From the NCBI GenBank assembly GCA_965219385.1, contig CBDCNM010000001.1, positions 360,631 through 424,630 on the forward strand: a DNA stretch of 64,000 bases, read 5' to 3'. Positions 3,063 to 29,814 of the stretch are shown piece after piece (position 1 is the first letter of the stretch; the number at the start of each line of letters is the position of its first letter). The position numbers and the translations under genes are program-made. Source of the stretch: Candidatus Latescibacterota bacterium (GTDB lineage Bacteria > Latescibacterota > UBA2968 > UBA8231). The notes beneath the pieces were generated by a model. The model worked only from the letters and a program-made list of their open reading frames with translations, was not told the DNA's origin and searched no databases.

Positions 3063-5480
3063 TTGCAGCGTCGGCAAGATACCGGTGGAAGCAGATACGT
3101 GGGGACGAATCAAAGCATCCTTCCTATAGTTTGTGGCGCCCCGCGGCTCATGGTACAAGCCGTTGAGCCCGCTCTCGAAAAAGCGCTGGGGCCACCCATC
3201 CGCCGCCAGCGGGACAATCTCCGTCCGCTGAGGGGCGCCGCCTGCCATCCTCGGCTCTTCTTACCGGCACTGTGGCTGCTGGCCGCGAGTGCGGTGCAGG
3301 CGGCCACCCTCAGCGGTTTCATCAGCGATGCGGACAACGGCGAGGTCCTGTCCCTGGCCACCATCGTCGTGGAGGGGACCAGGCTAGGCGCGCACAGCAA
3401 CAGCAGCGGCTACTACGCCGTCAAGCAGGTCCCGGCCGGCGCGTACGCAGTGGTTGTGTCCCACGTGGGCTACCAGACCGGCCGGGACACGCTGCGCTTC
3501 GAGGACGCAGGGGAGGTGCGGCGGGACTGGGCCCTGGCGCCCCGGCCGGTGGCTCTCGAAGAGGAGATCGTAGTCCAGGCCGAGCGCGCGGAATTGGAGC
3601 AGGCCACCCAGAGTAGTTTCATCCGTCTGCCGGTCGAGCCCTTGCAGCAGATGCCGGCCATTGGCGAAGCCGATCTGCTGCGTAGCTTGCAGTTGTTGCC
3701 GGGGATCCAGTCGGCCTCGGATGTCAGCAGCGGCCTGTACGTGCGCGGCGGTGGTCCAGACCAGACGGCCATTCTTCTCGACCACATTCCCCTGTACAAT
3801 CCCTCCCACCTCTTCGGCTTCTTCTCGACCTTCAACCCGGACGCCATCAAGGATGTCCAGCTCTACAAAGGAGCCTATCCGGCTGCGTACGGCCGCACCC
3901 TCGGGGCGGTGCTCGACGTGAGCAACCGCGAGGGCAATAGACAACGCTTCAGCGGCCGGGGCGGCGTCAGCCTGATTGCGAGCCGCTTGCTGGCCGAAGG
4001 GCCGGTGGGGCAAGGCTCGTGGATGATGGCCGGCCGCCGCACCTACCTGGAGCCGGTGCTCGGCGCCATCCGCTCCCAGGGGGTGGACATCCCGTTGAAC
4101 TATTACTTTTACGACTTCAACGGCAAAGTCAACCAGCGGTGGGGCGACGACACCTTTACGGTGAGCACCTACTGGGGCCAGGACGACCTGCGGGTAGACA
4201 TAGAAGACGAGAATGAGTCCTTCGTCGATCTGCGCTGGGGCAACCGCGCCTTTACGGCGCGCTGGACCCGGGTGTTCTCGCCGGCCCTGTTCGGCCATTT
4301 CATGGCGGCCGGCTCGTCCTACGAAAACGCCCTCTTGTTCAGTTTCTTCGACACGCCTTTCAGCATTGCCAACCGCATCCGCGACTGGTCGCTCAAGGGC
4401 GACGTGGATTACTTTGCCAACCGCGACCACACCCTCACCCTCGGTTTTCTGGCCACCCTATTCGAGTTCGACTATTCCGAGTCCTTCAATCAGCAGGATG
4501 AGCCTCCCCTGCACCAGAGGTCGGCGCTGGTCTCGGCCTACGTGCAGGACGAGTGGCAGGCCGGGCCGACCACGCGGCTGCGACTGGGGGGACGGGGCAC
4601 CTATTTCAGCGTCGGGGATCGCCTCCACTTCATGCCGCGGCTGTCCCTGAGCCGCGCCCTCAGCGACAAAATCCGCATCAAGGCCGCCGCCGGGATGTAC
4701 CGCCAGTACCTGCAGCTGATCACCACCGAAGCCTTCAGCGGCGGCGATTTCTGGGTGCCGCTGGATAGCAGTGTCGAGCCCGGGCGCTCCTACCAGGGAG
4801 TCGTAGGAACCGGGTGGACCCCGTCGCGGCGCTACCAGCTCTCGGTGGAGGGCTACTATACGGACCTGGCGAACCTGGTGGTGCTGGACAACGCGGTGGC
4901 CGTCGATAGCGAAGACACGCGCTCGGACGACATATTCAAAAGCGGCGGCAGCGGCTGGGCCAGCGGGCTCGAAGTCTTCTTGCAGCGGCGCACCGGGGCC
5001 CTCACCGGCTGGGTGGGCTATACCCTGGGCTGGACCCGGCGCACCTTCCCCGAACTGAACGGCGGGCGCGCCTTCCCCCCCAAGTACGATCGGCGCCACG
5101 ACCTGTCTTTCGTGGTCTCGTACCAAGCGGGGAAATGGCGCCTGGGCTCGAACCTCGTGTACGCCACCGGGCAGGCCTTCACCCCGGCCTCGGCCCGCTA
5201 TTCCCTGCGCGTGCCGACCACCGGGGTGGTGGAAGACTACGTGCTGCCGGCACGGCGCAACAGCGCCCGCCTGCTGCCCTACCACCGCCTCGATGCCAGC
5301 GCCAGCCGCGAGTTCGGGCTGTGGGGCCTCGACGTCGAGTTCTACCTGCAAATTTTCAATCTCTATAGCCGGCGCAACGAGTGGTTCGTGCAGTTCGACA
5401 CGAACAAACCCGAGACCGAGCCGGAGGTGTTCAAACAGTTGCCCATCGTGCCGACGCTGGGCTTCAATTTTTCGTTTTGA
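3063..5480 (+). CDS. TonB-dependent receptor (carboxypeptidase-regulatory-like N-domain, plug, barrel)
   Basis: Signal peptide RLFLPALWLLAASAVQA, GEADLLRSLQLLPG, VRGGGPDQ, C-terminal FNFSF; true start uncertain. Confidence 0.9.
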   Translation: MQRRQDTGGSRYVGTNQSILPIVCGAPRLMVQAVEPALEKALGPPIRRQRDNLRPLRGAACHPRLFLPALWLLAASAVQAATLSGFISDADNGEVLSLATIVVEGTRLGAHSNSSGYYAVKQVPAGAYAVVVSHVGYQTGRDTLRFEDAGEVRRDWALAPRPVALEEEIVVQAERAELEQATQSSFIRLPVEPLQQMPAIGEADLLRSLQLLPGIQSASDVSSGLYVRGGGPDQTAILLDHIPLYNPSHLFGFFSTFNPDAIKDVQLYKGAYPAAYGRTLGAVLDVSNREGNRQRFSGRGGVSLIASRLLAEGPVGQGSWMMAGRRTYLEPVLGAIRSQGVDIPLNYYFYDFNGKVNQRWGDDTFTVSTYWGQDDLRVDIEDENESFVDLRWGNRAFTARWTRVFSPALFGHFMAAGSSYENALLFSFFDTPFSIANRIRDWSLKGDVDYFANRDHTLTLGFLATLFEFDYSESFNQQDEPPLHQRSALVSAYVQDEWQAGPTTRLRLGGRGTYFSVGDRLHFMPRLSLSRALSDKIRIKAAAGMYRQYLQLITTEAFSGGDFWVPLDSSVEPGRSYQGVVGTGWTPSRRYQLSVEGYYTDLANLVVLDNAVAVDSEDTRSDDIFKSGGSGWASGLEVFLQRRTGALTGWVGYTLGWTRRTFPELNGGRAFPPKYDRRHDLSFVVSYQAGKWRLGSNLVYATGQAFTPASARYSLRVPTTGVVEDYVLPARRNSARLLPYHRLDASASREFGLWGLDVEFYLQIFNLYSRRNEWFVQFDTNKPETEPEVFKQLPIVPTLGFNFSF

Positions 5481-5484
5481 GGAG
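5368..5484 (+). repeat. Direct repeat copy 1: 3' end of TonB receptor gene plus RBS
   Basis: Matches 12388-12504 (5 mismatches in 117 bp); 5403-5484 identical to 27282-27363. Confidence 0.95.
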
Positions 5485-5558
5485 AAAGTCGTGCGCTATT
5501 AAGAGTTGGACGGCGGGGCACAGGGCAGGTATGAGACCCGGTTCTATAGAATTTCTAC

Positions 5559-6206
5559 TCACTTGCGCGCAATGCGGCACGACTTCCAGTTCTTTGACCA
5601 ATGTTCATCGGACTGGACATGGCCCGCCCGAACGCTCTTGCAGACATTGTACCTGAATTCCTCGGCCGGAAATGCTCGTGCCAACCGTATCACCACCCCT
5701 TCCCGTTCACCACCCAATACGGATGGCTCCGTGTGCGCCTTGCTTACGAAGTCCTGAATTTCGTCAACGGAGCAGAACAAGCCCTCGAACAGAATGGGAG
5801 CTACCGGAATGTCGTGTCCCTGTGCATAATCCACCATCGTCCGGAACGACGAAAAGGTACCATCCCCAAAGCGAAGTGCGAAGGCATAAAAGGTTTCGTT
5901 CTCGGCGACGGGTTCATATTCGATGCTGTGTACTCCGTAGATATCTTCACCATAAAGAAACACGTTCGGGTCCATCACCTTCCAAGCATGGTGTTTCTTG
6001 ACCATCGCCATCCACTTGCCATTCGAAGAAGCGGAGACACTACGTGCATAAACTTCACCCTGGTGAAGGAGTGTATTGCCTCCATCGATCTTCTCGGTTA
6101 CGACAATCGGTGATCCTATGAACTGCGTCGGGTCGGCAAGAGCTTCGCCGTCTCGGACAGCCGCTGGCGAGTCTGGCCAGTAGGGAGTTTTTGGATACTT
6201 GAGCAT
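5559..6206 (-). CDS. RNA ligase family protein (Rnl2-like nucleotidyltransferase)
   Basis: KYPKTPYWP N-terminus, motif I TEKIDG, YGE, FYAF, EGVVIR, KSVR. Confidence 0.85.
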   Translation of the reverse strand: MLKYPKTPYWPDSPAAVRDGEALADPTQFIGSPIVVTEKIDGGNTLLHQGEVYARSVSASSNGKWMAMVKKHHAWKVMDPNVFLYGEDIYGVHSIEYEPVAENETFYAFALRFGDGTFSSFRTMVDYAQGHDIPVAPILFEGLFCSVDEIQDFVSKAHTEPSVLGGEREGVVIRLARAFPAEEFRYNVCKSVRAGHVQSDEHWSKNWKSCRIARK

Positions 6207-6234
6207 ATGACCTGACGTCGAAAACAACGAACAT

Positions 6235-6717
6235 CTACGGACTCGATCTTGAGGCATGCTGTGGGCAAAGCTGTTTTACCGTCACACCCAAACACTTCGT
6301 CAGCGCCTCCTGCTGACTCCAGTCGCTATCCGTCGCGTTCAGGATGGTAGCTTGGGCAACCAAGGCCGCTGCGAGAAACTTGCGATCGGATTTGTCCAAA
6401 TCGTTTTCCGGCAGCTCTTTGAAGCCGAGGCGATCATCGCTGCATGGCGTAATCGAAACTCGACGCACGCGGGTTTTGTCGTACCCGTGATTGAAAAGAT
6501 GCCTGAAGAACATGTCTCCCACCCCCGGGACGCCTGCGAAATTCAGGTTTTCTTTGTATTCGTCGAATATGAGACCACCGTCGTCAACTACAACAACCTG
6601 CCGGCGGCAAACGTCCTCCAGTTTTTCTACACACGCCAATTGGCACTCGGGATCCACGTGTGTGTTTCTTCCGTTCGCCGCTATGGCAACGTTGGTGTCT
6701 ACGACATATGGCGTCAT
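6235..6717 (-). CDS. PIN-domain protein (putative RNase)
   Basis: VVDTNV N-terminus, DRKFLAAA and ATDSD acidic motifs; start overlaps ATPase stop. Confidence 0.65.
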   Translation of the reverse strand: MTPYVVDTNVAIAANGRNTHVDPECQLACVEKLEDVCRRQVVVVDDGGLIFDEYKENLNFAGVPGVGDMFFRHLFNHGYDKTRVRRVSITPCSDDRLGFKELPENDLDKSDRKFLAAALVAQATILNATDSDWSQQEALTKCLGVTVKQLCPQHASRSSP

Positions 6718-8081
6718 TGTGATGCTCCGATCCGTCTTTTCAGTGCTTCTTTGCTGATCGCGGCGATTTCGCCCATTTCATCTCCAAAAAAGTTATCCGG
6801 CCAGTTCTCTATATCACCCCACTCATTCAGCTTGAGGTCGTTCAATTTGGCTGCACCGCGTTTTGTATTAACGAAATAGAGTTTCAAGTCTGACGATGGC
6901 ATGCTGCCTTCGGCCACGCGACGCTGGAAGCGCCGCAGTAGATGCTCACTGTGGCTTTCTACGATGATCTGCACTTGGCGCGTCTTGGCCACTGCGAGCA
7001 TTACGTCCGCCAGCCCGCTTTGAGCGGACGGATGCAGATGAATCTCAGGCTGCTCCATCAGCACGATCGAGCCCTCCGGCACATAATACAGGAGGACCAA
7101 AACGGGCAGGATTTGGGAGACGCCAAAACCGACATCCGTCAGCATCGTTTCGGGGCTGGTGCGATCCCTTCGCACGCGGACCTGGTAGAGGTTTGACCCA
7201 GACGCGATTTCTTTAATTTGGAACGAATCGATCAGGCCTAGTTCTCGCAACCAATAGGCAATCATTTCCTGAAACTTCATGTATCGCTTGCGCGGTGCGA
7301 GGTTTCGCTTTTCGCCGTGCGCGGTAGCCGCCAGAATGGCATCGACAGTGCGTTCACCGCGCGGCCCCACGTCAGCGGGTCTGGCCCCGGACCAGTGGTA
7401 CTCGCGCTGCGGATGATCCCGGAGAGGGCCAAGATAGAATATCCTGTCCATTAAAGCTTCGTACTCGGCTTCGAATTGACTTAGAAAGCCCGTATTTTGA
7501 AAGTAGGTACGGGCCTGATCGGGGAAAAGGTGGGTCTTGACCGGGCCGGGCAATGCCCAGCCTCGTCCTTGATTCCGAATGAACGCTAGACCCTCTGACC
7601 TGAGCTCGAACTTACTGGATTCGTCTGCTCTTGGTTCGATGGCGAAAACGGTGTTGTCAAATCTATATTTCACATAATGCGCCGACAGATGTGAACCTTT
7701 CAATCCTACCCGAGAGCTCTCTTGCAGACTGCTTCCCGTGAAGAGTACCTCATTGCGAGGGCCCCTCGGGTCGTTGACCTTGAGAGGCCTCGGGAGCGTC
7801 CAATCCAGCGTCCAATCAATGTACGATGCTTGGTTGCCTTGATGTACCAAGGTTTGGTAATTTCCCAGATTCACCAGATTGGTCGGGCCTCCGGTCGGGC
7901 CTCCGAAGTCCAGCACGAGACCCCGATCCGTCGCATTCTTCGTCTGCTTGAGCAAGAGCAAAAACTGAAGCACGCTACTCTTGCCCGAGCTGTTTGTGCC
8001 GAAAAGGCCGGTGACCTTCCCTAAAGCTATCTGTAACTCACGCCATGCCTTGAAGTTAGTAATATCAAGAGATTTCAACAT
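6714..8081 (-). CDS. ABC/AAA_21-type ATPase with C-terminal DUF3696
   Basis: Walker A GTNSSGKS, DVGFGVSQ signature, EQPEIHLHP, ESHSEH, G-x-I-x-NWPDNFF tail. Confidence 0.9.
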   Translation of the reverse strand: MLKSLDITNFKAWRELQIALGKVTGLFGTNSSGKSSVLQFLLLLKQTKNATDRGLVLDFGGPTGGPTNLVNLGNYQTLVHQGNQASYIDWTLDWTLPRPLKVNDPRGPRNEVLFTGSSLQESSRVGLKGSHLSAHYVKYRFDNTVFAIEPRADESSKFELRSEGLAFIRNQGRGWALPGPVKTHLFPDQARTYFQNTGFLSQFEAEYEALMDRIFYLGPLRDHPQREYHWSGARPADVGPRGERTVDAILAATAHGEKRNLAPRKRYMKFQEMIAYWLRELGLIDSFQIKEIASGSNLYQVRVRRDRTSPETMLTDVGFGVSQILPVLVLLYYVPEGSIVLMEQPEIHLHPSAQSGLADVMLAVAKTRQVQIIVESHSEHLLRRFQRRVAEGSMPSSDLKLYFVNTKRGAAKLNDLKLNEWGDIENWPDNFFGDEMGEIAAISKEALKRRIGASQ

Positions 8082-8310
8082 TGGTTGCTCTCCTTCCTTT
8101 GAGCAGGGTCGGCACTTCGATGCCTTTGGCGAGGTCTCGTTCCAGAATCACGCCGACCGGCCATGCCCCTCTCGGTGCTCTACTACAGTGGTCATTTTGG
8201 GCACGTGCTGCAAGGCGAAATTTACAGCTTCAGCGGCCCTCGCCAGCATAACACCCTCCCGTAGTAGCCTCTCGATACGGACGCGAGGGCAGCGGATAGG
8301 GATTATACTA

Positions 8311-8430
8311 GAAGCGGTTTCATAACTTGATAGGGGGTTAGGTTTTTTCTTTTTTTATTCTTATTGTATTCGCTCTGCAAAAGGAGCCTACCTATGTCGC
8401 GCCATACTTACGAATTGACGATCCCAGTGG
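8311..8430 (+). mobile_element. Remnant left end of IS5-family element
   Basis: TA|GAAGCGGTTTCATAA end, RBS AAGGAG, ATG 8394 giving MSRHTYELT(DPQW after a 1-nt shift), then truncated. Confidence 0.45.
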
Positions 8431-8538
8431 TGGTTTTTGCGTTTTGAGGCGGGTGTCCCTTCTTGTCAGGTTGACTCCGTAACGATAATAGCTGCGCAAT
8501 CCGTAACTCCGGCAACCGTTGCCTATAGGAGAAGCCGA

Positions 8539-9325
8539 TCACAGTTTCTTGGCTTTGATGAGTTTGATCGAGTCCTGTACCGTCTCGTATTGCGTTGGAA
8601 GGAAGTGCGTAAGCCAGAGCTCAAGTATCTCCAGCACATCGCGAGGCCGACACTCATCGTCATCAACGCCGATTTCGGCAAGTAAGTCGTTGAGTGTATT
8701 TTCAGTCACTTGGCCATCCTTATTGATGCACTGAATCACCCGGCTGACGAGAGGGGTTTGGTTGATCGTAGCGGCAACCCATGCTTGGAACTCTTCATCG
8801 TTCATTCCGGGAACGGTGCCGATCTGTTTGAGTTCTTCTTGCATCGTCTGGAGAGCAGAGCGGCTGACGTCACAATTGCCGCAATAGACCGAATAGAGTT
8901 CCTCGGGATTCCTAGTGCGTGGAACCCAATCCGGCGGTAGCAGCCCCATTGTCGTTTCGTCGTCTATTTCCGATGGTATCACGTCGGGCAATCCCCAGAG
9001 CCTCTCAAGCAATTCCTCAAGACGATCGCGTTGTTCCGCAGTCGCGAGTACCGATCCAGAAAGCAACGCTTCCTCGAATTCGACAATGTGATCGGCAGTC
9101 CGCGCAACAGGTGTGAGCAATTCCAAGTTGGCAGGCGTTCGCCAGCCAAGTGCCGTGAAGGTGACATTAGCCGATCCGATGAGGCACATGTTATCGGCGG
9201 CGAAAAACTTGGCGTGCAGGTCGTACCGCAAATATAGCGGTACCTTCTTCGACTCAGCTATATCGTAGACGCCTAGATCAGAAGCCCCCGCAAGCAGATC
9301 CGCCGGTCGCCATCGCGTGACGATG
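8539..9325 (-). pseudogene. PLD-family (HKD) nuclease-like protein, N-terminus deleted
   Basis: IVTRWRPADLLAGASD, LHAKFFAAD...IGSANVT motif; no own start, joined out of frame to sspC. Confidence 0.7.
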
Positions 9326-9988
9326 GGCGTACTCCTCGAAAGCTTGATGAAGGATACCGACAACAATGAGCCGCTTGCCGCTGCGCGAAGCCCGCTCCGC
9401 GAGTTCTTGAAACAGGTAAATGTCCGATCCGTCGTTCGCCGCGGCCTCCAGGAATTTTCCCATCTCGTCAATGAAGACCAACAAACCACCGCCGGCACGC
9501 GGATAGCACTCCGCAATTTCATCAAGAGCATCGAGGACGCGCTTATCAGTCCAGGATTTTGACCCCCGTCCGGTTAGGAAATCAGTCGCCATGATAGCTT
9601 CGCCAATCACCTGTGCCGGGCGCTCCCGCCGGCCGACCACAGGTAGGATGCGCCAGCCTCTCGTCCGGGGTGGCAACGCTTTCCAGATAAGCGCTGCCGT
9701 TTCCCGGCCCAGTACGGATGCCGCATTGCGCGAGAGCTTCCTGTCCCCGTTGAGCGCGGCACTCAGGGCGATGACCAAGCTCGACTTTCCGCTGCCGTAG
9801 GGACCGGTCCAGGTGAATGCGCCTTGACCGTTCTCAGCCACATGCCGCGCCATGGTCTCAAGGACCTCGGCGGAGGATCGAGGACAGATGAATCCATCCA
9901 ATGCCGCCGGATCGCCAAGATCACTGTCGATGCGGATCGCGCGCTGAAAACGGCGGGCGATCTGTATCCGATCGGCGAGCGCCATCAC
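9278..9988 (-). pseudogene. sspC: SspC-like ATPase, N-terminal ~220 aa only
   Basis: RRFQRAIRIDSD, Walker A GPYGSGKS, IDEMGKFLE, LHQAFEEYAHR then abrupt loss of homology. Confidence 0.75.
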
Positions 9989-10003
9989 GCGCCGTCCTTT
10001 CTG

Positions 10004-10939
10004 TCACGAACCAACGTAGTCGCCCTCGATGAAGTCGATCGCATCTTCACCATTCAAATCGTGGTTCCGGATTAGCTGCTTCAGCCCGGTCGTTTCTGAC
10101 CATCTGTAGAGGCCATTGCTTACACCTTCGAGGGTAGAAAGACGATCCATCAAGTCGTTCTCGTCCAGCAGAAAGACCCTTCCCGGCGATCCGGGCTCAT
10201 AGGCGAGGGCCTCGAAGGAAAGGGTTCGCGCGGTGGAAAAGCCCGACCAGAAATGGGTGACGGCATAACAAAACACGCCAGGCCCGAGCGCAGGCTTGCG
10301 CCCTCGAACGAACCGGAATCCGTCACGTTTTCCAATAGGCCTGATCAGCCCAAGTTCCGTGAGTGGGGACTCCAAGGTATCCTCGTGACTTGCCTTCCCC
10401 GTTGGTAGCTGCGACACGTAAGAGCGCACAAAGCAGGCAACGTCGTTCCTGATCGTAGCGGTGGATGAGCGTCGCCATTCACGATCCTTTGCCAGCTTCT
10501 CCAAGCTCTTGACAAGCATGTCGCGCTCGAAGGATGGTGCGGGGAAGTAGTTGAATGCCCAAAACCACGTGGTCTTGTCAGGTTGGCCGCACAGCTGCCA
10601 GTGAACAAGCCACGCGGTAGCCGGGTTTTCCATGTACGGGTCGAGGCCATCTGCGGCAAATAAACGCTGGCCAAGTGCTGTGGTTACTGTGTGACGCGAT
10701 GCGTCCTTGATGATACCCGCCGCAGTGGCCCAATGCCGTATAGAGGCCACCATGTTCTTGCCGACCCCAAACCGTGCGATGGCGTCGTCCGCCAAGAAGA
10801 CCGACCTGTTATTTTCGTCGCCCTCGGTTTCCCGGACGGCATCGAAGGCTTTCTTGAGCCACCCATATCGGAGCGGAAACGTCTCGTGACCGGATAGCTG
10901 CGGTTGGTAGTCGTCGCGGTGGAGGGGACCTCGTATCAT
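10004..10939 (-). CDS. sspB: DUF4007 protein, SspB-like nickase
   Basis: SGHETFPLRYGWLKK, FGVGKNMVASIRHW, DPYME, ESPLTELGLI, PGRVFLL. Confidence 0.85.
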   Translation of the reverse strand: MIRGPLHRDDYQPQLSGHETFPLRYGWLKKAFDAVRETEGDENNRSVFLADDAIARFGVGKNMVASIRHWATAAGIIKDASRHTVTTALGQRLFAADGLDPYMENPATAWLVHWQLCGQPDKTTWFWAFNYFPAPSFERDMLVKSLEKLAKDREWRRSSTATIRNDVACFVRSYVSQLPTGKASHEDTLESPLTELGLIRPIGKRDGFRFVRGRKPALGPGVFCYAVTHFWSGFSTARTLSFEALAYEPGSPGRVFLLDENDLMDRLSTLEGVSNGLYRWSETTGLKQLIRNHDLNGEDAIDFIEGDYVGS

Positions 10940-11153
10940 TGCCTCTCTGCGCCTGGATGGAACGTCCAGGTTGACGATACCGATATTTTTCGGTATTGTC
11001 AATAATTAACTGGCGACATCCTCCAGGAGCTATAGCAATCCTAAATGAGATGTGAAATCTGATGTGATATAAGTATTTGTTTTTACAGGGAAAGCGATGG
11101 ATAAATTCACGAATTACGTAGGGTTGCTATAGGGATGGGCAAATGAGCTAAGC

Positions 11154-12338: not shown

Positions 12339-12387
12339 CCTGTTCAATGCACCCCCTAAGTAGCAGAGCCTATCCACTCTGCCTTGT

Positions 12388-12509
12388 GCCGGCGCAACGA
12401 GTGGTTCGTGCAGTTCGACACGAACAAACCCGAGACCAGGCCGGAGGTGGTCAAGCAATTGCCCATCGTGCCGACGCTGGGCTTCAATTTTTCGTTTTGA
12501 GGAGGACAT
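12388..12509 (+). repeat. Direct repeat copy 2 of TonB 3' end plus RBS GGAGGA
   Basis: 117-bp match to 5368-5484; continues GAGGACAT as in copy 3; abuts brxF start. Confidence 0.95.
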
Positions 12510-12512
12510 GTG

Positions 12513-12989: not shown

Positions 12990-13023
12990 AACCGACAAAT
13001 TCTACTGCAAGAGAGCAGATGCG

Positions 13024-16749: not shown

Positions 16750-16753
16750 ACAC

Positions 16754-18640: not shown

Positions 18641-21419
18641 ACATGACGACAGCTCATCTCTGTTCCCGGAAGCCCATACCGCCAAACCGCAGGGGCCGGT
18701 GGAATGTCTGGGCATGACCTTTGAAAACGATGAGACGCGCCGGGAGTATTTCCTGGGGAAGCTGCGCGAGAAGCTCAAGGACCCGGAGTTCCGCAAGATT
18801 GAGGGGTTCCCGACTGGTGAAGACGAGGACATCTTGGCCCTGTCTGATCCGCCGTATTATACCGCCTGCCCGAATCCGTTCATTGAGGATTTCATCAAGC
18901 ACTATGGGAAGCCGTATAATCCGAGCACTCCATACTCCATCGAGCCATATTCCGGCGAGCTAGCCGCTAGCCGCAACAATCGTTTTGTGAATGCTCATTC
19001 CTATGCCACAAAGGTCCCCTACGAGATAATTTGCAAGCTAATTTTGCATTACACCCAACCCGGCGACATTGTACTCGATTCTTTTGCAGGGACCGGAATG
19101 ACTGCTGTAGCTGGGCAGCTATGTGGCAACCCGGCTACAGTTGACGCTATGGGAATGAAGGTAGCCTCTACTAACGATCATACGGCAGTCGATGGTCAAC
19201 TGTTCAATGCTTTAGGTACACGTCAAGTCTTGGCTGGTGACCTATGCCCCGCTGCAACATTCCTAGCTGCCAACTTTAATCTGCCATTATCGGAGCAAGA
19301 ATTCAAAGAATCAATCGACAAGATCCTAGAGACGGTTGAAACAGAATGCGGATGGATGTACGAAACACGTCACGACAAGAATACACTCGGACGGATTTTA
19401 TGCACGGTCTGGTCGGATGTGTTTGTCTGCCCTGAGTGTACAGGCAACATTGTTTTTTGGGACGTAGCTGTAGATACCAAAGGCGGGACTATCCGCGACA
19501 TCATCGAATGTTCGCACTGTGGGGCAAAGTCTACAAAGCGAAAGCTAGAACGCGCCTGGACTACAAAATATGACAAGCAGTTGCAAACTCCTGTGCGGCA
19601 ATTCAAACAATTGCCAGTGCTAATTTTATATAAACATGGCGGTAAACGCTATGAGAAGAAACCCGATATATATGACTTGAATCTACTAGCCAAGATAGAA
19701 GATTTCGACATTCCTTACTGGTTTCCGACAGACAGAATGCCGGTAGGTGAAGAGTCTCGCCGAAACGACATTATCGGCCTTACACATGTCCATCATTTCT
19801 TCACTCGTCGCAATCTAGCTGCACTTGCTTGCGCGTGGTCAACTGTGCGCTCACTTCGAGAGCGCTTCATGCTTACGAGCATGATGTATAAGTCTTCCGT
19901 TTTGTGCGCACCACTAATGAGCAATTACTTCGCTGCTCAGAGAGGCGAAGCGCGTGGGGGTTGGGTTGGGAAGGAACGGTCAGGCACGCTATATTGCCCC
20001 TCGATTCATAGCGAGGTTTCGATCGCGTCGCAGATTGAATCGCGTCGCAATGCAGTTACTGTGACGGCAGCGTCGCAGCAACTGCCCTGCATCACCACAT
20101 CTTCCGCCACAGTGATGTCGATAGCTGAAGACAGCATTGACTACATTTTTACCGACCCCCCCTTCGGATCAAACAAGATGTATTCAGAGTTGAACTTCCT
20201 TTGGGAATCGTGGCTGAAGGTAAAGACGAACAACGCGTTAGAGGCAATAAGCAACAGGGCACAGAAGAAGGGACTTCAAGAATACGAAGATCTGATGAGG
20301 CGTGGATTTGTGCAGTACTACCGCGTCCTCAAGCCAGGACGATGGCTGACTGTGGAATTCTCCAATACAAGCAACGCAGTCTGGAACGCGTTACAGAATG
20401 CGTTAGGGGCCGCGGGTTTTGTCGTCGCCGATGTGACAAGTCTCAACAAGAAGCAGGGCTCGATATTGGGGTACACAACTGCAACTGCTGCGAGACAGGA
20501 CCTTGCCATCTCTGCCTACAAACCCAACGGAGGCCTTGAGAATCGGTTCAAGCTGACAGCCGGAACAGAGGAAGGCGTGTGGGACTTTGTCCGAACACAC
20601 CTGAAACAGCTCCCGGTGTTCGTTTCCAAAGATGGTCAGGCTGAAGTCATTGCCGAACGCCAGAACTACCTGCTCTTCGACCGCATGGTTGCCTTCCACG
20701 TCCAGCGTGGTGTGACGGTGCCTTTATCCGCTGCCGAGTTTTACACAGGTATAGAAAAGCGGTTTCCTCCACGTGACGGTATGTATTTCCTGCCCAACCA
20801 GGCTGCTGAGTACGATAAGAAGCGAATGACAGTCAAGGAGGTACTCCAGCTTCAGCTTTTCGTTTCCGACGAGGCATCGGCCATCCAGTGGCTCAAGCAG
20901 CAACTCACCAAGAGGCCGCAGACCTTCCAAGACATCCATCCGCAATTCTTGAAAGAGATCGGCGGCTGGCAGAAACATGAAAAGACCTTGGAGCTTTCCG
21001 TACTGCTTGGAGAGAACTTCCTGCGCTACGACGGCAAGGGCGAAGTCCCCAGCCAGATTCACAGCTATCTTTCGTCGAACTTCAAGGAACTCCGCAACTT
21101 AGCCAAGGACAACCCATCGCTCAAGGCCAAGGCCAAGGATCGCTGGTATGTACCCGACCCGAACAAGGCCGGTGAACGGGAGAAGCTGCGCGAAAGAACC
21201 CTAATACGAGAATTTGAAGAGTACCGGGAATCCAGACAGAAACGCCTGAAGGTGTTTCGTCTTGAGGCTGTTCGAGCCGGATTCAAGAAGGCATGGCAAG
21301 AGCGCGACTACGCCACTATAATAGCTGTCGCAGAGAAAATTCCGGAGACGATCCTCCAAGAGGATTCTAAGCTCCTCATGTGGTATGACCAAGCGTTGAT
21401 AAGGAAGGGAGGCGAGTGA
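18633..21419 (+). CDS. pglXI: BREX-3 DNA methyltransferase PglXI
   Basis: SDPPYYTACPNP, DSFAGTGMT, YIFTDPPF, Zn-ribbon CPEC/CSHC, LLMWYDQA tail. Confidence 0.88.
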   Translation: MAKHDDSSSLFPEAHTAKPQGPVECLGMTFENDETRREYFLGKLREKLKDPEFRKIEGFPTGEDEDILALSDPPYYTACPNPFIEDFIKHYGKPYNPSTPYSIEPYSGELAASRNNRFVNAHSYATKVPYEIICKLILHYTQPGDIVLDSFAGTGMTAVAGQLCGNPATVDAMGMKVASTNDHTAVDGQLFNALGTRQVLAGDLCPAATFLAANFNLPLSEQEFKESIDKILETVETECGWMYETRHDKNTLGRILCTVWSDVFVCPECTGNIVFWDVAVDTKGGTIRDIIECSHCGAKSTKRKLERAWTTKYDKQLQTPVRQFKQLPVLILYKHGGKRYEKKPDIYDLNLLAKIEDFDIPYWFPTDRMPVGEESRRNDIIGLTHVHHFFTRRNLAALACAWSTVRSLRERFMLTSMMYKSSVLCAPLMSNYFAAQRGEARGGWVGKERSGTLYCPSIHSEVSIASQIESRRNAVTVTAASQQLPCITTSSATVMSIAEDSIDYIFTDPPFGSNKMYSELNFLWESWLKVKTNNALEAISNRAQKKGLQEYEDLMRRGFVQYYRVLKPGRWLTVEFSNTSNAVWNALQNALGAAGFVVADVTSLNKKQGSILGYTTATAARQDLAISAYKPNGGLENRFKLTAGTEEGVWDFVRTHLKQLPVFVSKDGQAEVIAERQNYLLFDRMVAFHVQRGVTVPLSAAEFYTGIEKRFPPRDGMYFLPNQAAEYDKKRMTVKEVLQLQLFVSDEASAIQWLKQQLTKRPQTFQDIHPQFLKEIGGWQKHEKTLELSVLLGENFLRYDGKGEVPSQIHSYLSSNFKELRNLAKDNPSLKAKAKDRWYVPDPNKAGEREKLRERTLIREFEEYRESRQKRLKVFRLEAVRAGFKKAWQERDYATIIAVAEKIPETILQEDSKLLMWYDQALIRKGGE

Positions 21420-24214
21420 TGTTTATAGAAGTAGTTAAACTCCAGAATGCACCCAATACAGAAAAGGGAAACCTCCTAGAGAAACTTGCAGAAGAGTTTC
21501 TAAGGGTGCAAGGGTATGAAGTCTCTAAGCAAGTTAGGGTTACTGCCTCTGAATTAGATTTGCTCTGTAACCACAAAGTTTCAGAGAAGAAAATTTATGT
21601 AGAGTGCAAGGCTCAAAAGGATTCTCTTTCTGCGGATGTTCTAACAAAACTTCTGGGTAATGTAAATTTCCACGAATATTCTGAAGGCTGGCTTATTAGC
21701 ACTGGCCCTTTGAGTAAGGACGCCAAAGGATTCATGGCTGAATGGGAAAAGAAAGAGCTTGAAAAGAAGGAAAAGTTAAGTATCTATACACCCGATAGAG
21801 TTTTAGATTCGCTGCAGGACGCCAAATTAATAACACATCCACCCACTGAAACAGCATTAAAACTCATACGAGAAACGGACCTTTCAATAGGCGATTGGGT
21901 GTTGCTTGTAACTCCTTGGGGAAACTACTGGGCGTGCCCATTATTGCTCAATGGGTTAACCAATTCGGTGATCTTGTTTTGTGCCCTGAATGCTCGTCAA
22001 ATTTCTGATGAAATTGTCTTTGAACATATTAAAACTTCAGATTTCAGTTTGAGGGATTTTGAGTTTTTGAGCGTTGAAAGTGTTGAAAAATCCAATAAAA
22101 ATATCGCTCAACAAAAAGACACGGCAATTGTTGAGGTAGAGTTTGGTGAGAAATGGTCTGACTATCGGCCAGCTCGTCCAGAACACTTTGTTGGACGAAA
22201 AAAGGTGCAAAAAGAACTTCTACAGTTTTTCACTTCTGTAAAAAAGGGCAGGACAGAATCGCGTATCTTTGCCATAAAGGGTGATTCCGGCATTGGGAAG
22301 AGTTCTCTCGTGGCGAAGATGCGAGCTGTGGCCAAAAGTAGCCACAAGCCCAATAATCTATTTCTTTACGCTGTCGATATGAGAGCTGCAAATGATGCCT
22401 CTTATGTTTCCTCTTCACTCATGAAGGCCTTAAAATCAGCGGCAATTCAAGGCCTTGGTCACGAAAACGATCTGAAAATCAGTAATTATAATGATCCGCT
22501 ACAAAGTGAGTCTATTAGTACATTCCTATCTGAATGTAAGAAAAAGCATGAATTGATCATTTTTGTTTTTGATCAGTTTGAAGAACTGTACTCGAAGTCG
22601 GAGTTATTTGCGGTCTTTGAGGCAGCAAAGAGGCTTATGTTTTCTGTTATATCTGCTTCTTCAAACTTGGTACTGGGATTTGCATGGAAAACGGACAGTT
22701 CTGTACCTCAAGAACATCCTGCTTACCACATGTGGCACGAATTATCCGATCACCGTTTTGAGGTGTCACTCAAACCATTTAGCCATTCAGATGCAGAGCA
22801 ATCGTTGAAAGTCTTTGAAGCTGAATTGGGTGAGAAAATTCGGCCAGAGCTCCGTAAGTATCTATTGGAAAACAGCCAGGGATATCCTTGGCTGTTAAAA
22901 AAACTATGCATACATTTTTATCATCAATTGAAAAACGGTGTCAGTCAACAGGAGATGGCGAACCGATCATTAGATATTTCATCTCTATTTGATCAAGATT
23001 TGAACAATCTGAATGATTCAGAAATGGGATGCCTGAAATCAGTTGCACAGAATGCACCTATGGACTGGTACGAAGTCCTTGAGTATGCTGGACACGATGT
23101 AGTTCAGTCTCTTCAGAATAAGCGCCTACTGATCAGACGGGGGGATAAGCTTAATCTATATTGGGATATTTTTCGCGATTATGTGCGTTTTGATACCATC
23201 CCATCAATTCCGTTCACCTACATTCCCCAATCGCCATCTATAGATGCATTGCTGCATGTTTCTCAGGAACTTGACGATGCTGAAGGGAAATCTCTCCAAG
23301 AATTGGCGGACAGGTCGAAACTTAAGGAAAGTACCGTTAGGAATATCATCCATGATTTAGAACAGTTTGGAGTTATAAGCATTGCTGAAGGTCAGATCAA
23401 AATTGATGATCACTTGAATGATTTTGATGAGAGATCAATCTTATCCAATATCAGAATAGTGTTTAAAAGACACGCATTCACTGAATTACTAAAGAAAAAT
23501 AATACCCTGAAGTCCGGTGATACGGAGCAGTTGATAACCTATCTCAAACAGATAAATCCCACTGCACAACACCATATTCGTACATGGAACACATATGCCC
23601 AAAGAATGGTTGTCTGGTTAAAAGCCTTTGGTTTAATTCGCAATGAGAGCGATGGAGTCAGGTACGAAGATCTGGGTGATATTTCTGGTGGTGATGTTAA
23701 AAAATGGAGTGGTGAACGAAAAAGAATAGTCTTTTTGGGAGATACTTCGCCAGCGAAAGTTATCGAAGCTTTCGATTTGTTAAAGCAAGGGGCGAAATCA
23801 CAGATCAGCATGAAGAATTTGGGATTCCGCAATGCATGTGTTGTACTATACCGTTTTCGGTTGGTAGAATTGACATCTGCCGGTGAATATCGAGTGCCTG
23901 AATATGCTATAATATTTTCGTCAATAAAGGTGATCTGGGAAGAAGCAGGAAAGGAAGAATCAATTAGACTAGCAATAGATTTGTTAACAAAGAACCCCCA
24001 TCTTTCAGGTAAAAAAATTGGTAACTTTGTAGCTACAAAATTCAAAAGAGATTGGAAACCCGCTTCCTGTCAGCGAGTTGGCAATAGTCTCCGGCAATGG
24101 GGTGTGTGGCTAATGACCCCTTTATCTATAGATTGTTCTATACCACCCGCACCGGGGCGCAATACACCAAGACATGATGTACAACCTAGTTTGTTCGATC
24201 TGGAGAATGAATAA
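21416..24214 (+). CDS. Mrr-like PD-(D/E)XK endonuclease fused to STAND-type P-loop NTPase and wHTH
   Basis: KGNLLE...ELDL...YVECK; Walker A GDSGIGKS; Walker B FVFDQFEE; visibly AT-rich gene. Confidence 0.75.
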   Translation: MMFIEVVKLQNAPNTEKGNLLEKLAEEFLRVQGYEVSKQVRVTASELDLLCNHKVSEKKIYVECKAQKDSLSADVLTKLLGNVNFHEYSEGWLISTGPLSKDAKGFMAEWEKKELEKKEKLSIYTPDRVLDSLQDAKLITHPPTETALKLIRETDLSIGDWVLLVTPWGNYWACPLLLNGLTNSVILFCALNARQISDEIVFEHIKTSDFSLRDFEFLSVESVEKSNKNIAQQKDTAIVEVEFGEKWSDYRPARPEHFVGRKKVQKELLQFFTSVKKGRTESRIFAIKGDSGIGKSSLVAKMRAVAKSSHKPNNLFLYAVDMRAANDASYVSSSLMKALKSAAIQGLGHENDLKISNYNDPLQSESISTFLSECKKKHELIIFVFDQFEELYSKSELFAVFEAAKRLMFSVISASSNLVLGFAWKTDSSVPQEHPAYHMWHELSDHRFEVSLKPFSHSDAEQSLKVFEAELGEKIRPELRKYLLENSQGYPWLLKKLCIHFYHQLKNGVSQQEMANRSLDISSLFDQDLNNLNDSEMGCLKSVAQNAPMDWYEVLEYAGHDVVQSLQNKRLLIRRGDKLNLYWDIFRDYVRFDTIPSIPFTYIPQSPSIDALLHVSQELDDAEGKSLQELADRSKLKESTVRNIIHDLEQFGVISIAEGQIKIDDHLNDFDERSILSNIRIVFKRHAFTELLKKNNTLKSGDTEQLITYLKQINPTAQHHIRTWNTYAQRMVVWLKAFGLIRNESDGVRYEDLGDISGGDVKKWSGERKRIVFLGDTSPAKVIEAFDLLKQGAKSQISMKNLGFRNACVVLYRFRLVELTSAGEYRVPEYAIIFSSIKVIWEEAGKEESIRLAIDLLTKNPHLSGKKIGNFVATKFKRDWKPASCQRVGNSLRQWGVWLMTPLSIDCSIPPAPGRNTPRHDVQPSLFDLENE

Positions 24215-24356
24215 AAGCTGTTTCAAAACTAGCGTCGGGCCGCATCAAGGGTTGTCAAGTGCCTTCGCATTGAGCGTTTTTCATAGGGCGAGACGCTCTG
24301 GATCCGACGCTTTTTCTTCACACAAGGAACCGAACCTGGAGTTTTGGGACCACTTC
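24214..24356. mobile_element. MITE-like element (IS5-type ends)
   Basis: Imperfect terminal IRs AAAGCTGTTTCAAAACT / GAAGTGGTCCCAAAACT (12/17), TA on both sides, inner IR AGCGTCGG/CCGACGCT. Confidence 0.55.
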
Positions 24357-24481
24357 TAGTCATATTTTGGTAATGAGGTGCTAGCCACAACAATTCTTGT
24401 AAGACCATTGAGTCCCATAGACGTTGGATTAAAGATGTTCAAAAATGCCTCCGACAGCTATCATATTTCAAAGATGTATCC

Positions 24482-26488
24482 ATGAGTAACTGGCGCAACC
24501 AGATTCTCCGCGAATTCACGCCCAACGTAGCCCGTCTGACACTGGTCGCCGACCCTGACGGGCTGCTTTTGGAAGAAGGTATTCTTGCGGGCATTCGTGA
24601 GCGGGGATTTGAACTGATTCCGTTCGAGGATCACATCGCCTTTCGGTATGCCTACGAGACCCAGTTCCGTTCCCGCTGGGATCGAGGCGAGCAGACAGAA
24701 CTGGTGGTCGTACTGCACTCCGAGGCCCGAGACCTGGGCTGCTTGCCATACGATCTGCTCCAGGCTGGTCGTCGGCTTTCGTTCAGCCTGGGCGAGATTT
24801 TCCCCAACCTGAGCTATCCGGTTGTGGCCGCCTTGGACCGGCGAGACTTGGACGCGCTGGACGATGCCCAGGAGCAGTACGCGCCCGATGTGCTGGGAGA
24901 CAACGCGACCATAAAATTTGTCCTGCGGCATGTTTTCGAGATTGCACCGGAACTCATCCAAGAGCCATCCGATTTGTTGCGGGTGCTGCTGCGCCGCCAC
25001 CACCGAGAACAGCGGATTCCGTCCTTGTTGAACGAGCGATTTGTCCAGTTGCTCCGCCAGCAGCATGGATTTGGAGACTGGCCACTCGAAATGATCGTTT
25101 CAGACCGGCAGGCATTTTTCGCCTTTCTCCAGGAACGCTGGCCTATCTTTCTCGACCGGGCAGCGAGCGAAGAAGGTCTCGTCGTTCGGGAGCGCACGGA
25201 ACCTTATGCTTTAGAGTTTTCCGGCCCTACGGATTTGCCATTCGATCACGACGATATCCGTATCTATATCGACAACCTGTTTCTCGAAGGACTGCTCGAA
25301 GCCGTCCCATACGAACAGGCTGAATCGTTGTCAAAGCCTTGGCTCGTTATTGGCATCCGGAGAGATGAGCAGGCGGACCGAGAGCGCCGCGTGGATGGCC
25401 TTCTCTGCACTTTGGCCTCCACTATTCCGCAAGAGGAGACACAGCACGACGACTGGTTCCGCTTTGCCAGAACCTGGGCCGAATTGGTTGCCCTGTCTCT
25501 GGAATCGGATGCGATGTTGCCAGAGCCTGTAAGTCAAAAGATGGAGACGTTGCAAGCACGAATTGACGCTGCGCTTGTGCCTTGGCTGGTAAACCGTTAT
25601 CCGGGATTGAGCAATTTGCCGCCAGATCCGCCGGTCATGCTGCACCACATTCCCCGTTTCCTTGCCAGGCATGTCAATGATGCCAAGGAACACAAGGTGG
25701 CGTTCGTCCTAATAGATGGCCTTTCGCTGGATCAGTGGATCGTCGCCCGCAAGGAGCTTGCCAAGCAACGCTCCGAGTACCGTTTCCGAGAGCACGCAGT
25801 GTTCGCTTGGATACCCACCATCACCTCGGTTTCGCGCCAAGCAGCCTTTGCCGGCAAGCCACCCATCTACTTTCCGAACAGTATTGGCACCACGAACAAG
25901 GAGCCAGCCTTGTGGACGAAATTTTGGGTGGACCAAGGGCTGACACAGCAAGAAGTCGGATATGCCAAAGGGCTTGGGGACGGCGCACTGGATCGCGTAG
26001 AGGAGATGATTGCTCGGCTACGAATGCGTGTCGTCGGTTTGGTTGTTGACAAAGTAGATAGGATCATGCACGGCATGGAACTTGGCGCTGCGGGGATGCA
26101 CAACCAGGTTCGGCAGTGGGCCGGTCAACCGTTCATGGCGAACCTTGTCGATCTGCTTCTGGAAAACGGATTCCGTGTTCACCTATCTTCGGATCATGGA
26201 AATATTGAGGCTGCCGGGTGCGGCCGTCCCGCAGAGGGAGTGGTTGCGGACTTGCGCGGTGAGCGTGCTCGAATCTATCCAGATTCTTTACTGCGTGGTC
26301 AGGTCAAAGAGCGATTTCCAGACGCCCTGGAATGGCCACCAATTGGGCTGCCGGAGGACTATCTACCTCTGCTTGCCACGGGTCGCTCGGCGTTTGTTCG
26401 CGAGACCGAACGCCTTGTCGGTCACGGCGGAGCATCGCTTGAAGAACTGGTCGTCCCTCTTGTTCAGATCGAAAGGAGGGACAATTGA
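24482..26488 (+). CDS. pglZ: BREX-3 phosphatase PglZ
   Basis: LVADPDGLL, LIDGLSLDQW, PTITSVSRQA, SDHGN, HGGASLEELVVP. Confidence 0.92.
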   Translation: MSNWRNQILREFTPNVARLTLVADPDGLLLEEGILAGIRERGFELIPFEDHIAFRYAYETQFRSRWDRGEQTELVVVLHSEARDLGCLPYDLLQAGRRLSFSLGEIFPNLSYPVVAALDRRDLDALDDAQEQYAPDVLGDNATIKFVLRHVFEIAPELIQEPSDLLRVLLRRHHREQRIPSLLNERFVQLLRQQHGFGDWPLEMIVSDRQAFFAFLQERWPIFLDRAASEEGLVVRERTEPYALEFSGPTDLPFDHDDIRIYIDNLFLEGLLEAVPYEQAESLSKPWLVIGIRRDEQADRERRVDGLLCTLASTIPQEETQHDDWFRFARTWAELVALSLESDAMLPEPVSQKMETLQARIDAALVPWLVNRYPGLSNLPPDPPVMLHHIPRFLARHVNDAKEHKVAFVLIDGLSLDQWIVARKELAKQRSEYRFREHAVFAWIPTITSVSRQAAFAGKPPIYFPNSIGTTNKEPALWTKFWVDQGLTQQEVGYAKGLGDGALDRVEEMIARLRMRVVGLVVDKVDRIMHGMELGAAGMHNQVRQWAGQPFMANLVDLLLENGFRVHLSSDHGNIEAAGCGRPAEGVVADLRGERARIYPDSLLRGQVKERFPDALEWPPIGLPEDYLPLLATGRSAFVRETERLVGHGGASLEELVVPLVQIERRDN

Positions 26489-27267
26489 ACGGACGAAAAA
26501 CCCAGATCGGCTTCAGCCAACGTATCCGACTTGAGTGGTTCGAGCAGACAGCCAATTTGATACTGGCTGGGAACGACAGGACCATAATCAACGATTCGCT
26601 CCAGGATCTGTTGCAGGACAAGGTGTCAGTCGGTGGTGAATCCGTTAGGGGCAACAGGGAAAAAGTGATCACCATCCTGTTGAAGACTTGGATTACCGTG
26701 CCTCGTGAATTGGAGAAGCTACGGGACGAAGGCTTGAAGATACTACAATTACTCGCTCGCAAAGACCGAATTGCTGTTCACTGGGGCATGACGCTGGCAG
26801 CCTACCCCTTTTGGGGCGCGGTCGCGGCGCACACCGGCAGGCTCTTGCGGCTTCAGGGAACAGCCGCGGCAGCACACGTCCAGCGACGGGTCAAGGAGGA
26901 ATACGGTGAACGCAAAACCGCGTCACGGGCTGCCCGGCGTGTGCTTCGATCATTCATCGATTGGGGCGTTTTGAACGAGACGCAGGACAAAGGCGTCTAT
27001 GATCAAGGGAAACAGTACTCGGTTGAGGAACCCAGGCTCATCGCCTGGATGGTGGAGGCATCTCTCTGCTCCCGTTCGAACGGGTCTGCCGCCACAAAAG
27101 ACCTGCTCGACAGTCCAAGCATCTTTCCATTCCGCTTCCCCTATATCTCAGCCGAGCATGTGGCATCTCTCTCGCCTCGTCTAGATATGCTACGGCACAG
27201 TCTGGATGATAATCTTGTGATGCTGCGTGGAGAAGGTCATGACAGCGGGAAGGGAGGGGCAAAATGA
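26485..27267 (+). CDS. brxA: BREX-3 BrxA-like protein
   Basis: IGFSQRIRLEW, HWGM-AAYPF, YGER, SFIDWGVL; terminal gene of type 3 BREX order. Confidence 0.75.
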   Translation: MNGRKTQIGFSQRIRLEWFEQTANLILAGNDRTIINDSLQDLLQDKVSVGGESVRGNREKVITILLKTWITVPRELEKLRDEGLKILQLLARKDRIAVHWGMTLAAYPFWGAVAAHTGRLLRLQGTAAAAHVQRRVKEEYGERKTASRAARRVLRSFIDWGVLNETQDKGVYDQGKQYSVEEPRLIAWMVEASLCSRSNGSAATKDLLDSPSIFPFRFPYISAEHVASLSPRLDMLRHSLDDNLVMLRGEGHDSGKGGAK

Positions 27268-27281
27268 CCTTTCCTTATACC

Positions 27282-27369
27282 AACAAACCCGAGACCGAGC
27301 CGGAGGTGTTCAAACAGTTGCCCATCGTGCCGACGCTGGGCTTCAATTTTTCGTTTTGAGGAGGACATC
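27282..27369 (+). repeat. Direct repeat copy 3 of TonB 3' end plus native RBS of DUF4249 gene
   Basis: 82 bp identical to 5403-5484. Confidence 0.95.
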
Positions 27370-29439: not shown

Positions 29440-29453
29440 CTTTCCAGTGGACT

Positions 29454-29621: not shown

Positions 29622-29640
29622 TTGAGTTTTACTAAAGTCA

Positions 29641-29814
29641 GTACGCCATGATTCCAGCTATGTTTTTGACCCGGCCGACATCGATTCGACCGGGCGCCTC
29701 GTGCGCCCATCCCACGGCGCCTACAGCCGGGATGCGGCGGGGGTGACCAACGCCCAGGTGCGCATCGTCGAAAGGGACCGTGTCTTCGAGTACGCGGCCG
29801 GTCCGGCTCGGCCT
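29641..29814 (+). repeat. Diverged internal copy of DUF4249 gene segment 27544-27717
   Basis: Ungapped 174-bp alignment; first five differences are synonymous. Confidence 0.9.

Follow-up and report, generated by a model that had tools for sequence, protein, structure and literature searches.

Insertion with long target duplication was reportedly described for restriction-modification (R-M) genes by Nobusato and co-workers in 2000. In the part of their later study cited here, Furuta, Abe and Kobayashi (2010; PMC2853133) characterize such inserts as shorter than 20 kb, free of mobility genes and flanked by direct repeats of more than 30 bp, with a single repeat copy in the empty site of a relative. 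The repeats are of variable length and frequently include a start or stop codon, the target gene survives, and a cycle of insertion, repeat-mediated amplification and release was hypothesized, with no experimental evidence for release and re-infection. Cis-mobilizable elements (CIMEs; Pavlovic 2004 and Bellanger 2011, via the cited passages of the review PMC5704250) derive from integrative and conjugative or integrative and mobilizable elements and are moved by a cognate site-specific integrase. Orphan arrays of type VI secretion system (T6SS) effector-immunity genes are attributed, in the cited part of Kirchberger et al. (2017; PMC5361080), to a homologous anchor combined with illegitimate joining, with older units displaced downstream. 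Here, we describe a defence gene array in a 64,000-nucleotide stretch of a Candidatus Latescibacterota bacterium genome (assembly GCA_965219385.1, contig CBDCNM010000001.1, positions 360,631–424,630; hereafter the window). The array, made of defence genes and of copies of the 3' tail of a TonB-dependent receptor gene, sits between that gene and its DUF4249 partner. We consider it probable that it arose by serial insertion with long target duplication, through host recombination acting on DNA from relatives.

A repeat search of the window returned one direct-repeat family with copies at 5368, 12388 and 27247. Alignment and anchored comparison refined the limits of the three forward-strand copies to 5368–5499, 12388–12509 and about 27279–27378, with spacings of 7.0 and 14.9 kb. 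Copy 1 is the native tail, contiguous with the receptor open reading frame (ORF, 3063–5480); its stop codon is followed by GGAG and by GTGCGCTAT, the first 9 nt of a DUF4249 start, and then by TAA, leaving a dead start. Copy 2 is a partial tail with sequence variants, whose stop is followed by GGAGGACAT, a ribosome site that ends the copy immediately 5' of brxF and feeds that gene. Copy 3, another partial tail, is contiguous with the DUF4249 gene, whose live start is at 27370. The repeat shared by copies 1 and 3 covers about 95 nt at 96% identity, with no differences from about 27285 to 27363. Copies 1 and 2 share 117 nt at 96% identity: the left 50 nt of copy 2 match exactly, and five variant bases lie to the right, of which two are synonymous (AAA/AAG, CAG/CAA) and three alter two residues (GAG to AGG, TTC to GTC). 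Across the 5.8 Mb genome, assembled in 2 contigs, copies of the tail occur at these three places alone (E-values 2e-64, 1e-48 and 3e-40), the next best match having an E-value of 0.67. A preliminary description of this stretch had reported the three direct copies and the dead start, both of which stand. It had placed the start of copy 3 at 27282, which moves to about 27279, and had called the changes in copy 2 synonymous, which holds for two bases and fails for the other three.

The array has none of the mobility genes or tRNA sites that were looked for. No recombinase or transposase Pfam domain was found in the 15 cassette ORFs, PF00589 had no match among the window ORFs and a dedicated search found no tRNA or tmRNA within the 64 kb, in agreement with the earlier claim that integrase and tRNA are both missing. 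GC content is about 0.65 in the flanks and drops to 0.40–0.59 inside the array. The inserts are shorter than 20 kb, carry no mobility-related gene and are flanked by direct repeats of more than 30 bp, as in insertion with long target duplication.

To place the locus among relatives, we searched 76 family genomes for a 133-nt anchor (55 matched at E ≤ 1e-6) and for DUF4249 (68 matched at E ≤ 1e-40). Receptor and DUF4249 coordinates were compared by hand and checked on fetched loci; 38 genomes were judged and the other 38, with weak hits or split contigs, were left out. The site is empty in 29 of the 38, with a single copy of the repeat and the receptor stop roughly 10–100 nt from the DUF4249 start. 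Repeat-flanked inserts are present in six: this genome (G000), G018, G089, G091, G080 and G066. G018, which belongs to a different genus, has BREX-3 at the site between a 65-nt repeat pair. G091 has an RNA-ligase/HEC-03 unit alone (second copy 45 nt), G089 has a UPF0150 gene plus RNA-ligase/HEC-03 (second copy 54–70 nt), and G080 and G066 have the UPF0150 gene only (second copy 47–75 nt). Scanning the ORFs of these six occupied sites gave a recombinase domain in none. The remaining sites hold a STAND ATPase gene without repeats (G093 and G097) or a 190-nt non-coding insert (G083). The locus presents a natural series of empty, single, double and triple states, together with decayed relics and units common to different genera. 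The preliminary description had proposed accretion at the anchor and had suggested looking for empty sites and alternative cassettes in related genomes; both were found, and the 29 empty sites and the single units elsewhere agree with units being gained at the anchor. Separately, a 397-amino acid (aa) AAA_16/STAND ATPase gene lies between receptor and DUF4249 in G097 (locus L132), G093 (L133) and G018 (L038, 18058–19251), three genomes of two genera, at 81% aa identity; the genes of G093 and G097 lack flanking repeats.

Comparison with G018 indicates that the partial copy travels with its unit, the evidence being comparative and drawn across genera. The copy after brxA has the same left boundary in G000 and G018, just past the same hairpin-like sequence. 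Over its first 20 nt on the left, the BREX-side copy of G018 agrees with copy 2 of the window at 18 of 20 positions, a stretch in which the receptor tails of G018 and its congener G002 are unalignable; the G018 repeat pair covers the last 65 nt only. Because this part of the G018 copy is of foreign type and does not match its own receptor, it must have been imported with the cassette. The AGG variant of copy 2 also recurs in the BREX-side copy of G018, which supports the earlier suggestion that copy 2 is a donor allele. The shared BREX unit is 88–94% identical to that of the window at the DNA level (BrxC 94% and PglZ 90% aa identity), compared with 85% for the receptor and 78–84% for DUF4249 (83% and 58% aa identity), and the identity of the flanking genes does not increase beside the unit. 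The junction of the sspA end with copy 2 is also present in G078, where sspA is 84% identical and a deletion and then a UPF0150 gene follow. Two units thus carry one partial copy, with a common left boundary, in different genera.

The copies also differ in ways that suggest exchange between them. The left edge of copy 3 is cassette-side and the rest equals copy 1, the reverse of the mosaic in copy 2; the two mosaics fit an exchange within the copy between an incoming partial copy (hereafter arm) and the resident tail, although the pattern is suggestive only. The variant ATTCGCC, present in both G018 copies and in no other genome aligned, suggests gene conversion between the two. When all copies are aligned, the four unit types have arms with different limits on both sides: left edges fall at about 38, 70, 95–111 and 100–124 (alignment register) and right edges 2–20 nt past the stop. 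About 33 nt around the stop are common to all copies, and the exchange interval inferred for BREX lies outside them, a placement that gene conversion could mimic. If the core were fixed, two separate events, subsequent deletions or conversion could account for these patterns.

The receptor gene (3063–5480, forward strand; CarboxypepD_reg, Plug and barrel by Pfam; start codon uncertain) contributes its last ~113 nt as the anchor, and its orthologues in relatives have 75–87% aa identity. The 22 kb that follow had been divided into two cassettes; we find instead at least three units and a PLD-family gene. The unit nearest the receptor lies on the reverse strand. It consists of HEC-03B (6714–8081; an AAA_15/AAA_21/DUF3696 ATPase by Pfam; PADLOC PDLC04148, E = 2.5e-215), the PIN-like HEC-03A (6235–6717; PDLC04147, E = 1e-64) and, as third gene, an RNA ligase family gene (5559–6257; PF09414, E = 3e-18). 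HEC-03A and HEC-03B are adjacent and both full length, as in the HEC-03 candidate defence system of PADLOC. The PLD-family gene (8539–9531, reverse strand) has 307 relatives at E ≤ 0.001, many of them with PF13091, and itself a weak PLDc_2 match. Its true start is probably near 9456, since the relatives are about 305 aa long; a longer or fused form was looked for among proteins of 579–2000 aa and none was found.

The Ssp phosphorothioation system consists of SspABCD plus a restriction partner. Here, sspB (DUF4007; 10004–11002, reverse strand) and sspA (a cysteine desulfurase; 11154–12338, forward strand), each matched by Pfam and PADLOC, encode full-length proteins. sspC is a remnant (9278–9988, reverse strand; PADLOC E = 1.6e-84) that covers N-terminal profile positions 1–220 of 1045 only, and the PADLOC scan gave no SspD match among the ORFs scanned, leaving the set of sspA, sspB, sspC and sspD incomplete. 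Because HEC-03 occurs as a unit of its own in relatives, the first cassette is a composite of the RNA-ligase/HEC-03 unit, the PLD-family gene and a decayed Ssp unit. The receptor-tail copy expected between HEC-03 and the PLD and truncated Ssp genes is absent from the window; we infer that it was lost by deletion.

Type 3 BREX is said to comprise BrxF, BrxC, PglXI, BrxHII, PglZ and BrxA, the gene set reportedly given by Goldfarb and co-workers in 2015. The unit between copies 2 and 3, entirely on the forward strand, contains brxF (12510–12989; PADLOC E = 3.8e-78), brxC (DUF6079; 13024–16749), pglXI (a methyltransferase gene; 18612–21419), pglZ (24482–26488) and brxA (26485–27267; PADLOC E = 4.7e-101), with brxC, pglXI and pglZ matched by both Pfam and PADLOC. 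Two further genes lie within it, an accessory Schlafen/AlbA_2-HATPase_c_4-Fic-like_C gene (16754–18640; Pfam), of which just the last 126 aa are retained in G018, and an Mrr_cat-STAND NTPase gene (21416–24214; ~40% GC) in the place expected for BrxHII, between pglXI and pglZ. Strong PADLOC matches cover five of the six genes, and BrxHII had no PADLOC match in the BREX-3 set. The unit contains the PglXI methyltransferase gene and an Mrr_cat-domain gene without forming a classical R-M pair, and the HEC-03 unit contains neither; the long-target-duplication study used the presence of both R and M homologues as a search filter. The interior of the BREX unit differs between genera: 11115–15132 of L038 (G018) stands in place of 16754–24214 of the window, with SMC-like AAA_21 and Schlafen/HATPase_c_4 genes where the window has the Mrr_cat-STAND gene. 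PglXI is 58% identical between the two, compared with 88–94% at the unit ends.

Past the array, the DUF4249 gene (27370–28371, forward strand; Pfam) and a methyltransferase gene (28735–29523) are followed by a relic (29454–29813, forward strand) that joins a 5' fragment of HEC-03B and its upstream region to a 5' fragment of DUF4249. This decayed second copy of the junction between HEC-03 and DUF4249 points to an earlier insertion that overlapped here or to duplication of the locus.

The same layout is found on other targets. In G086 and G078, a Dam methylase/DUF7690-DUF7687 cassette lies behind DUF4249 itself, with DUF4249-tail duplications of 77 and 58 nt. G078 also has a displaced fragment of the receptor-site array (sspB', sspA, an arm stub, UPF0150 and a tail fragment) behind a PhyH gene, bracketed by 150-nt duplications of the PhyH tail. 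The DUF4249 and PhyH tails are thus second and third hotspots next door, seen at 4193–5903 of L049 (G086) and at 4113–6915 and 7657–9947 of L048 (G078). Beyond the family, we fetched 80 loci with relatives of HEC-03B from many phyla; the set of RNA ligase, HEC-03A and HEC-03B is kept in most of the first 45. Of the 80 loci, 71 had a length of 9 kb or more; on self-comparison, 22 of these 71 showed a direct repeat flanking the HEC-03 cassette at both ends, a figure without a background control. Ten of these were inspected, and the repeats are different host sequences in each. At three annotated loci the repeats are tails of genes, with lengths of 383 nt for rpoC, 94 nt for an AcrB-family gene and 64 nt for a molybdopterin oxidoreductase gene. 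The rpoC case is Massilia aerilata KACC 12505 (L097, 5514–9084), where HEC-03 lies behind rpoC between copies, 97% identical, of its tail and terminator. In another Massilia record (L098), the repeat pair around HEC-03 measures 369 nt.

We also screened the genome for similar loci. This screen is a coarse one and gives no count of insertion events. It began with 486 local direct-repeat pairs, in 47 of which one copy ran across the stop codon of an ORF of at least 150 aa; 8 were dropped (2 in the window, 3 spanning more than 20 kb and 3 near-duplicates), leaving 39 loci outside the window, each at most 20 kb long. The 175 interior ORFs of these loci gave no match to PF00589 (Pfam, E ≤ 1e-10). 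Transposase domains occur at seven loci (L141, L143, L148, L150, L159, L164 and L170) and defence-typical domains at seven or more (L138, L142, L145, L146, L160, L170 and L171). Other loci are tandem paralogues or repeat-protein genes (e.g. L155 and L163), and several are false positives.

Three further direct repeats lie in the right half of the window. A 60-nt repeat (84% identity; 37741–37800 and 47046–47106) brackets a type III R-M pair and two further genes: Res (38340–41183), Mod (41186–43216), UvrD-PD-(D/E)XK (43283–46147) and RadC (46144–46833); no recombinase domain was found in the ORFs between its copies. A 95-nt repeat (86%; 47135–47229 and 49329–49427) surrounds DUF5916 and CBM9 gene fragments. 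A 69-nt repeat (90%; 50042–50110 and 61372–61440) brackets about 11 kb with genes for a C5 DNA methylase, a HATPase_c_3 protein and a Methyltransf_35 protein. A further ORF there (59403–61139) combines an N6_N4 methylase domain with the C-terminal half of an MlrC-type peptidase and looks like a fusion made by insertion.

Public sequencing runs were also compared with the locus. Ten runs were listed, five of which contained half or more of the sampled words, and four (X5, X6, X7 and X9) were mapped on 4801–24800. These four contain short contigs assembled from a mixture of strains, none of which extends across a copy into both flanks. Over brxF-brxC (12805–16139), the summed depth of contigs is about 50–430, compared with about 6–9 in strain-specific parts, so near-identical BREX-3 is present in many members of those communities. 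Two candidate rearrangements were rejected. A joint of 5392 to 12456, found in three runs with one contig each, does not keep the register of the repeat and is not counted as an excision; it has a side of 30–31 nt, the contigs do not give the sequence between, and it most likely comes from a relative with BREX directly behind a divergent receptor tail, as in G018. A joint of 7944 to 8194 is the relic, at 29469–29621, mapped onto HEC-03B.

We propose the following route for the array. At least three defence units would have been added successively between receptor and DUF4249, each bordered on its DUF4249 side by an arm. Because the arm would include both stop codon and ribosome site, each step would leave the receptor and the gene after it intact. 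An incoming unit with its arm would pair with the resident tail or with an earlier arm, and a Campbell-type single exchange of a circle, or an ends-in exchange of a linear piece, would insert it with a copy on each side. If only one end were homologous, the other could be joined illegitimately inside the tail, which would make a new arm; the G078 block at the PhyH tail is the clearest candidate for such an event. Recombination of one copy with another would remove or free whatever units lie in between, and gene conversion would keep the copies alike. In this scheme, the type of recombination, the circular intermediate, the order of insertion and the looping-out are inferred.

Several points weigh against this route. 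No excision joint, circle or exchange was observed, so the looping-out in the preliminary description, which is otherwise largely borne out, stays conjectural; the public runs offer short assembled contigs only. The inferred BREX exchange intervals are adjacent, to the left of an AG/GA site in G000 and to its right in G018; the same picture could result from a fixed crossover whose overlap is mismatched, or from gene conversion at a later time. A donor with a host-like allele, such as G086 has, could have supplied the arm of copy 3, and the differences in boundary between copies of the same unit (G091 and G089; G080 and G066) could be later deletions. Arms of 45–130 nt at 85–95% identity are poor substrates for RecA-type recombination, and homology does not explain how a unit first reached a new gene tail. 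The proportion of repeat-flanked HEC-03 loci, as said, has no control. Among host functions, ComEC and DprA have matches in the genome, which is uninformative since both are also found in 10–11 of 14 control genomes, and Ku, for end joining, has no match. Self-mobilization of HEC-03 by its own PIN nuclease, ATPase and ligase was considered and rejected, because the BREX, Ssp, UPF0150 and Dam units share the layout without those genes.

The main competitor, which we regard as unlikely, is a CIME-type array in which site-specific integration used the receptor tail as attB, the integrase being lost or acting in trans; the three copies would then represent attL, a hybrid att and attR. In the cited part of the review (PMC5704250), CIMEs are defined by elements that accumulate in tandem at a target-gene end and keep their att sites but no integrase, and the 33-nt stretch around the stop in all copies could hold a core. 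The identical BREX arm boundaries in two genera also suit this explanation, as do 10 tyrosine-recombinase matches in the genome, although the nearest is more than 460 kb from the array. A site-specific enzyme is harder to reconcile with the other observations. None of the six repeat-flanked sites has a recombinase domain in the ORFs scanned, no element with a cognate site-specific recombinase was found at the site in the 38 genomes judged (a helper could exist outside the 76 sampled), the anchor occurs nowhere else in the genome and its core pattern has 0 matches in viral contig and metagenome contig collections. DUF4249, PhyH and unrelated genes in other phyla share the duplicated-tail layout, and each would need its own integrase. 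The last 15 codons of the receptor show no extra synonymous conservation (0.81, compared with 0.57–0.87 in other windows of 12 genomes, measured as the fraction of identical codons among same-residue pairs), and the repeat folds no better than shuffled sequences (z = +0.89).

Insertion with long target duplication must also be weighed against two further explanations. The copies may be scars, by-products unused for later gain or loss, left when each unit arrived once from a relative by one-sided homologous plus illegitimate joining, akin to homology-facilitated illegitimate recombination, or when the whole array came by flanking replacement; we judge this somewhat less probable even than an array of attachment sites. 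For the G078 block at the PhyH tail, the simplest explanation is a homologous anchor on one side and an illegitimate join on the other, orphan arrays at T6SS loci are explained in this way in the cited part of PMC5361080, and relics and truncations are frequent here (the sspC remnant; 29454–29813). However, the right copy of G018 begins with foreign sequence and was not made from its own tail, the lack of raised flank identity beside the BREX unit argues against co-transfer of flanks, and the variant common to both G018 copies points to recombination between copies. Finally, contigs of different strains could have been joined at the 100-nt repeat, since the assembly is of metagenome type and the public runs hold many related strains with shared cassettes. 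We consider such an artefact very improbable. The 5.8 Mb are in just 2 contigs, and zero-difference unitigs of the first cassette (8114–9348) and of the second (18879–20681 and 21362–24244) have equal depth within a run (in that order, 6.5, 5.8 and 5.9 in X5; 8.4, 8.6 and 8.6 in X6). Independent single-contig genomes also have the same repeat-flanked layout.

If serial insertion with long target duplication built the array, a wider possibility follows, which we offer tentatively and hold to be less likely than the insertion itself: that defence operons of these uncultured bacteria, and of members of several other phyla, circulate as recombinase-free, homology-armed cassettes that carry a copy of their landing site, a conserved host-gene tail, and are plugged in behind that gene in relatives, stacked and released by host recombination. 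BREX-sized defence could then cross genera with a short gene-tail copy, with no classical mobile element needed. Such a system would be an integron-like array builder without an integrase, and would supply the release and re-infection steps in the R-M life cycle of the Kobayashi group. Most island finders, being keyed to integrases, tRNAs or transposases, would miss these cassettes, and duplicated gene tails would be a simple marker for new cargo. The locus could help to settle the mechanism of long target duplication, which the cited part of Furuta et al. (2010; PMC2853133) leaves unresolved, and cultured Massilia with HEC-03 behind rpoC offers a bench route to testing insertion.

Among known systems, the integron arrays are alike in having tandem cassettes parted by a recurring short site beside a fixed anchor. 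They differ in that the locus has no IntI and no attC-type hairpin (z = +0.89) and that its site is the tail of a coding gene. CIMEs, as presented in the cited part of PMC5704250, share integrase-less units bounded by repeats of a target-gene end, with new units stacking beside the target; here, no such enzyme or parent element is found at the site in 38 genomes, and the layout occurs on many unrelated targets. T6SS orphan arrays, and the Rhs and contact-dependent inhibition arrays cited with them in the part of PMC5361080 used here, likewise grow without an integrase behind a conserved upstream gene. In the T6SS arrays, however, the variable 3' part is replaced and the old immunity gene stranded, whereas here the anchor gene is unchanged and whole operons are inserted.

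The closest likeness is to insertion with long target duplication as set out in the cited part of PMC2853133, with repeat-flanked inserts that lack a mobility gene and repeats that span the stop codon. The cargo described there consists of classical R-M pairs, and here of BREX-3, HEC-03 with an RNA ligase, and Ssp. In this locus three copies delimit a tandem stack on one anchor, and a partial copy is shown to travel with its unit between genera, where the cited text has release and re-insertion as a hypothesis only. Our literature searches, of limited coverage, found little on the same layout with other defence systems; one study retrieved reports R-M genes without repeats around them. Insertion behind duplicated gene tails without mobility genes is of a kind already known; the novelty of this locus lies in its cargo, in the stacking on one anchor and in evidence, drawn from comparison, that a copy of the landing site moves with the cassette.

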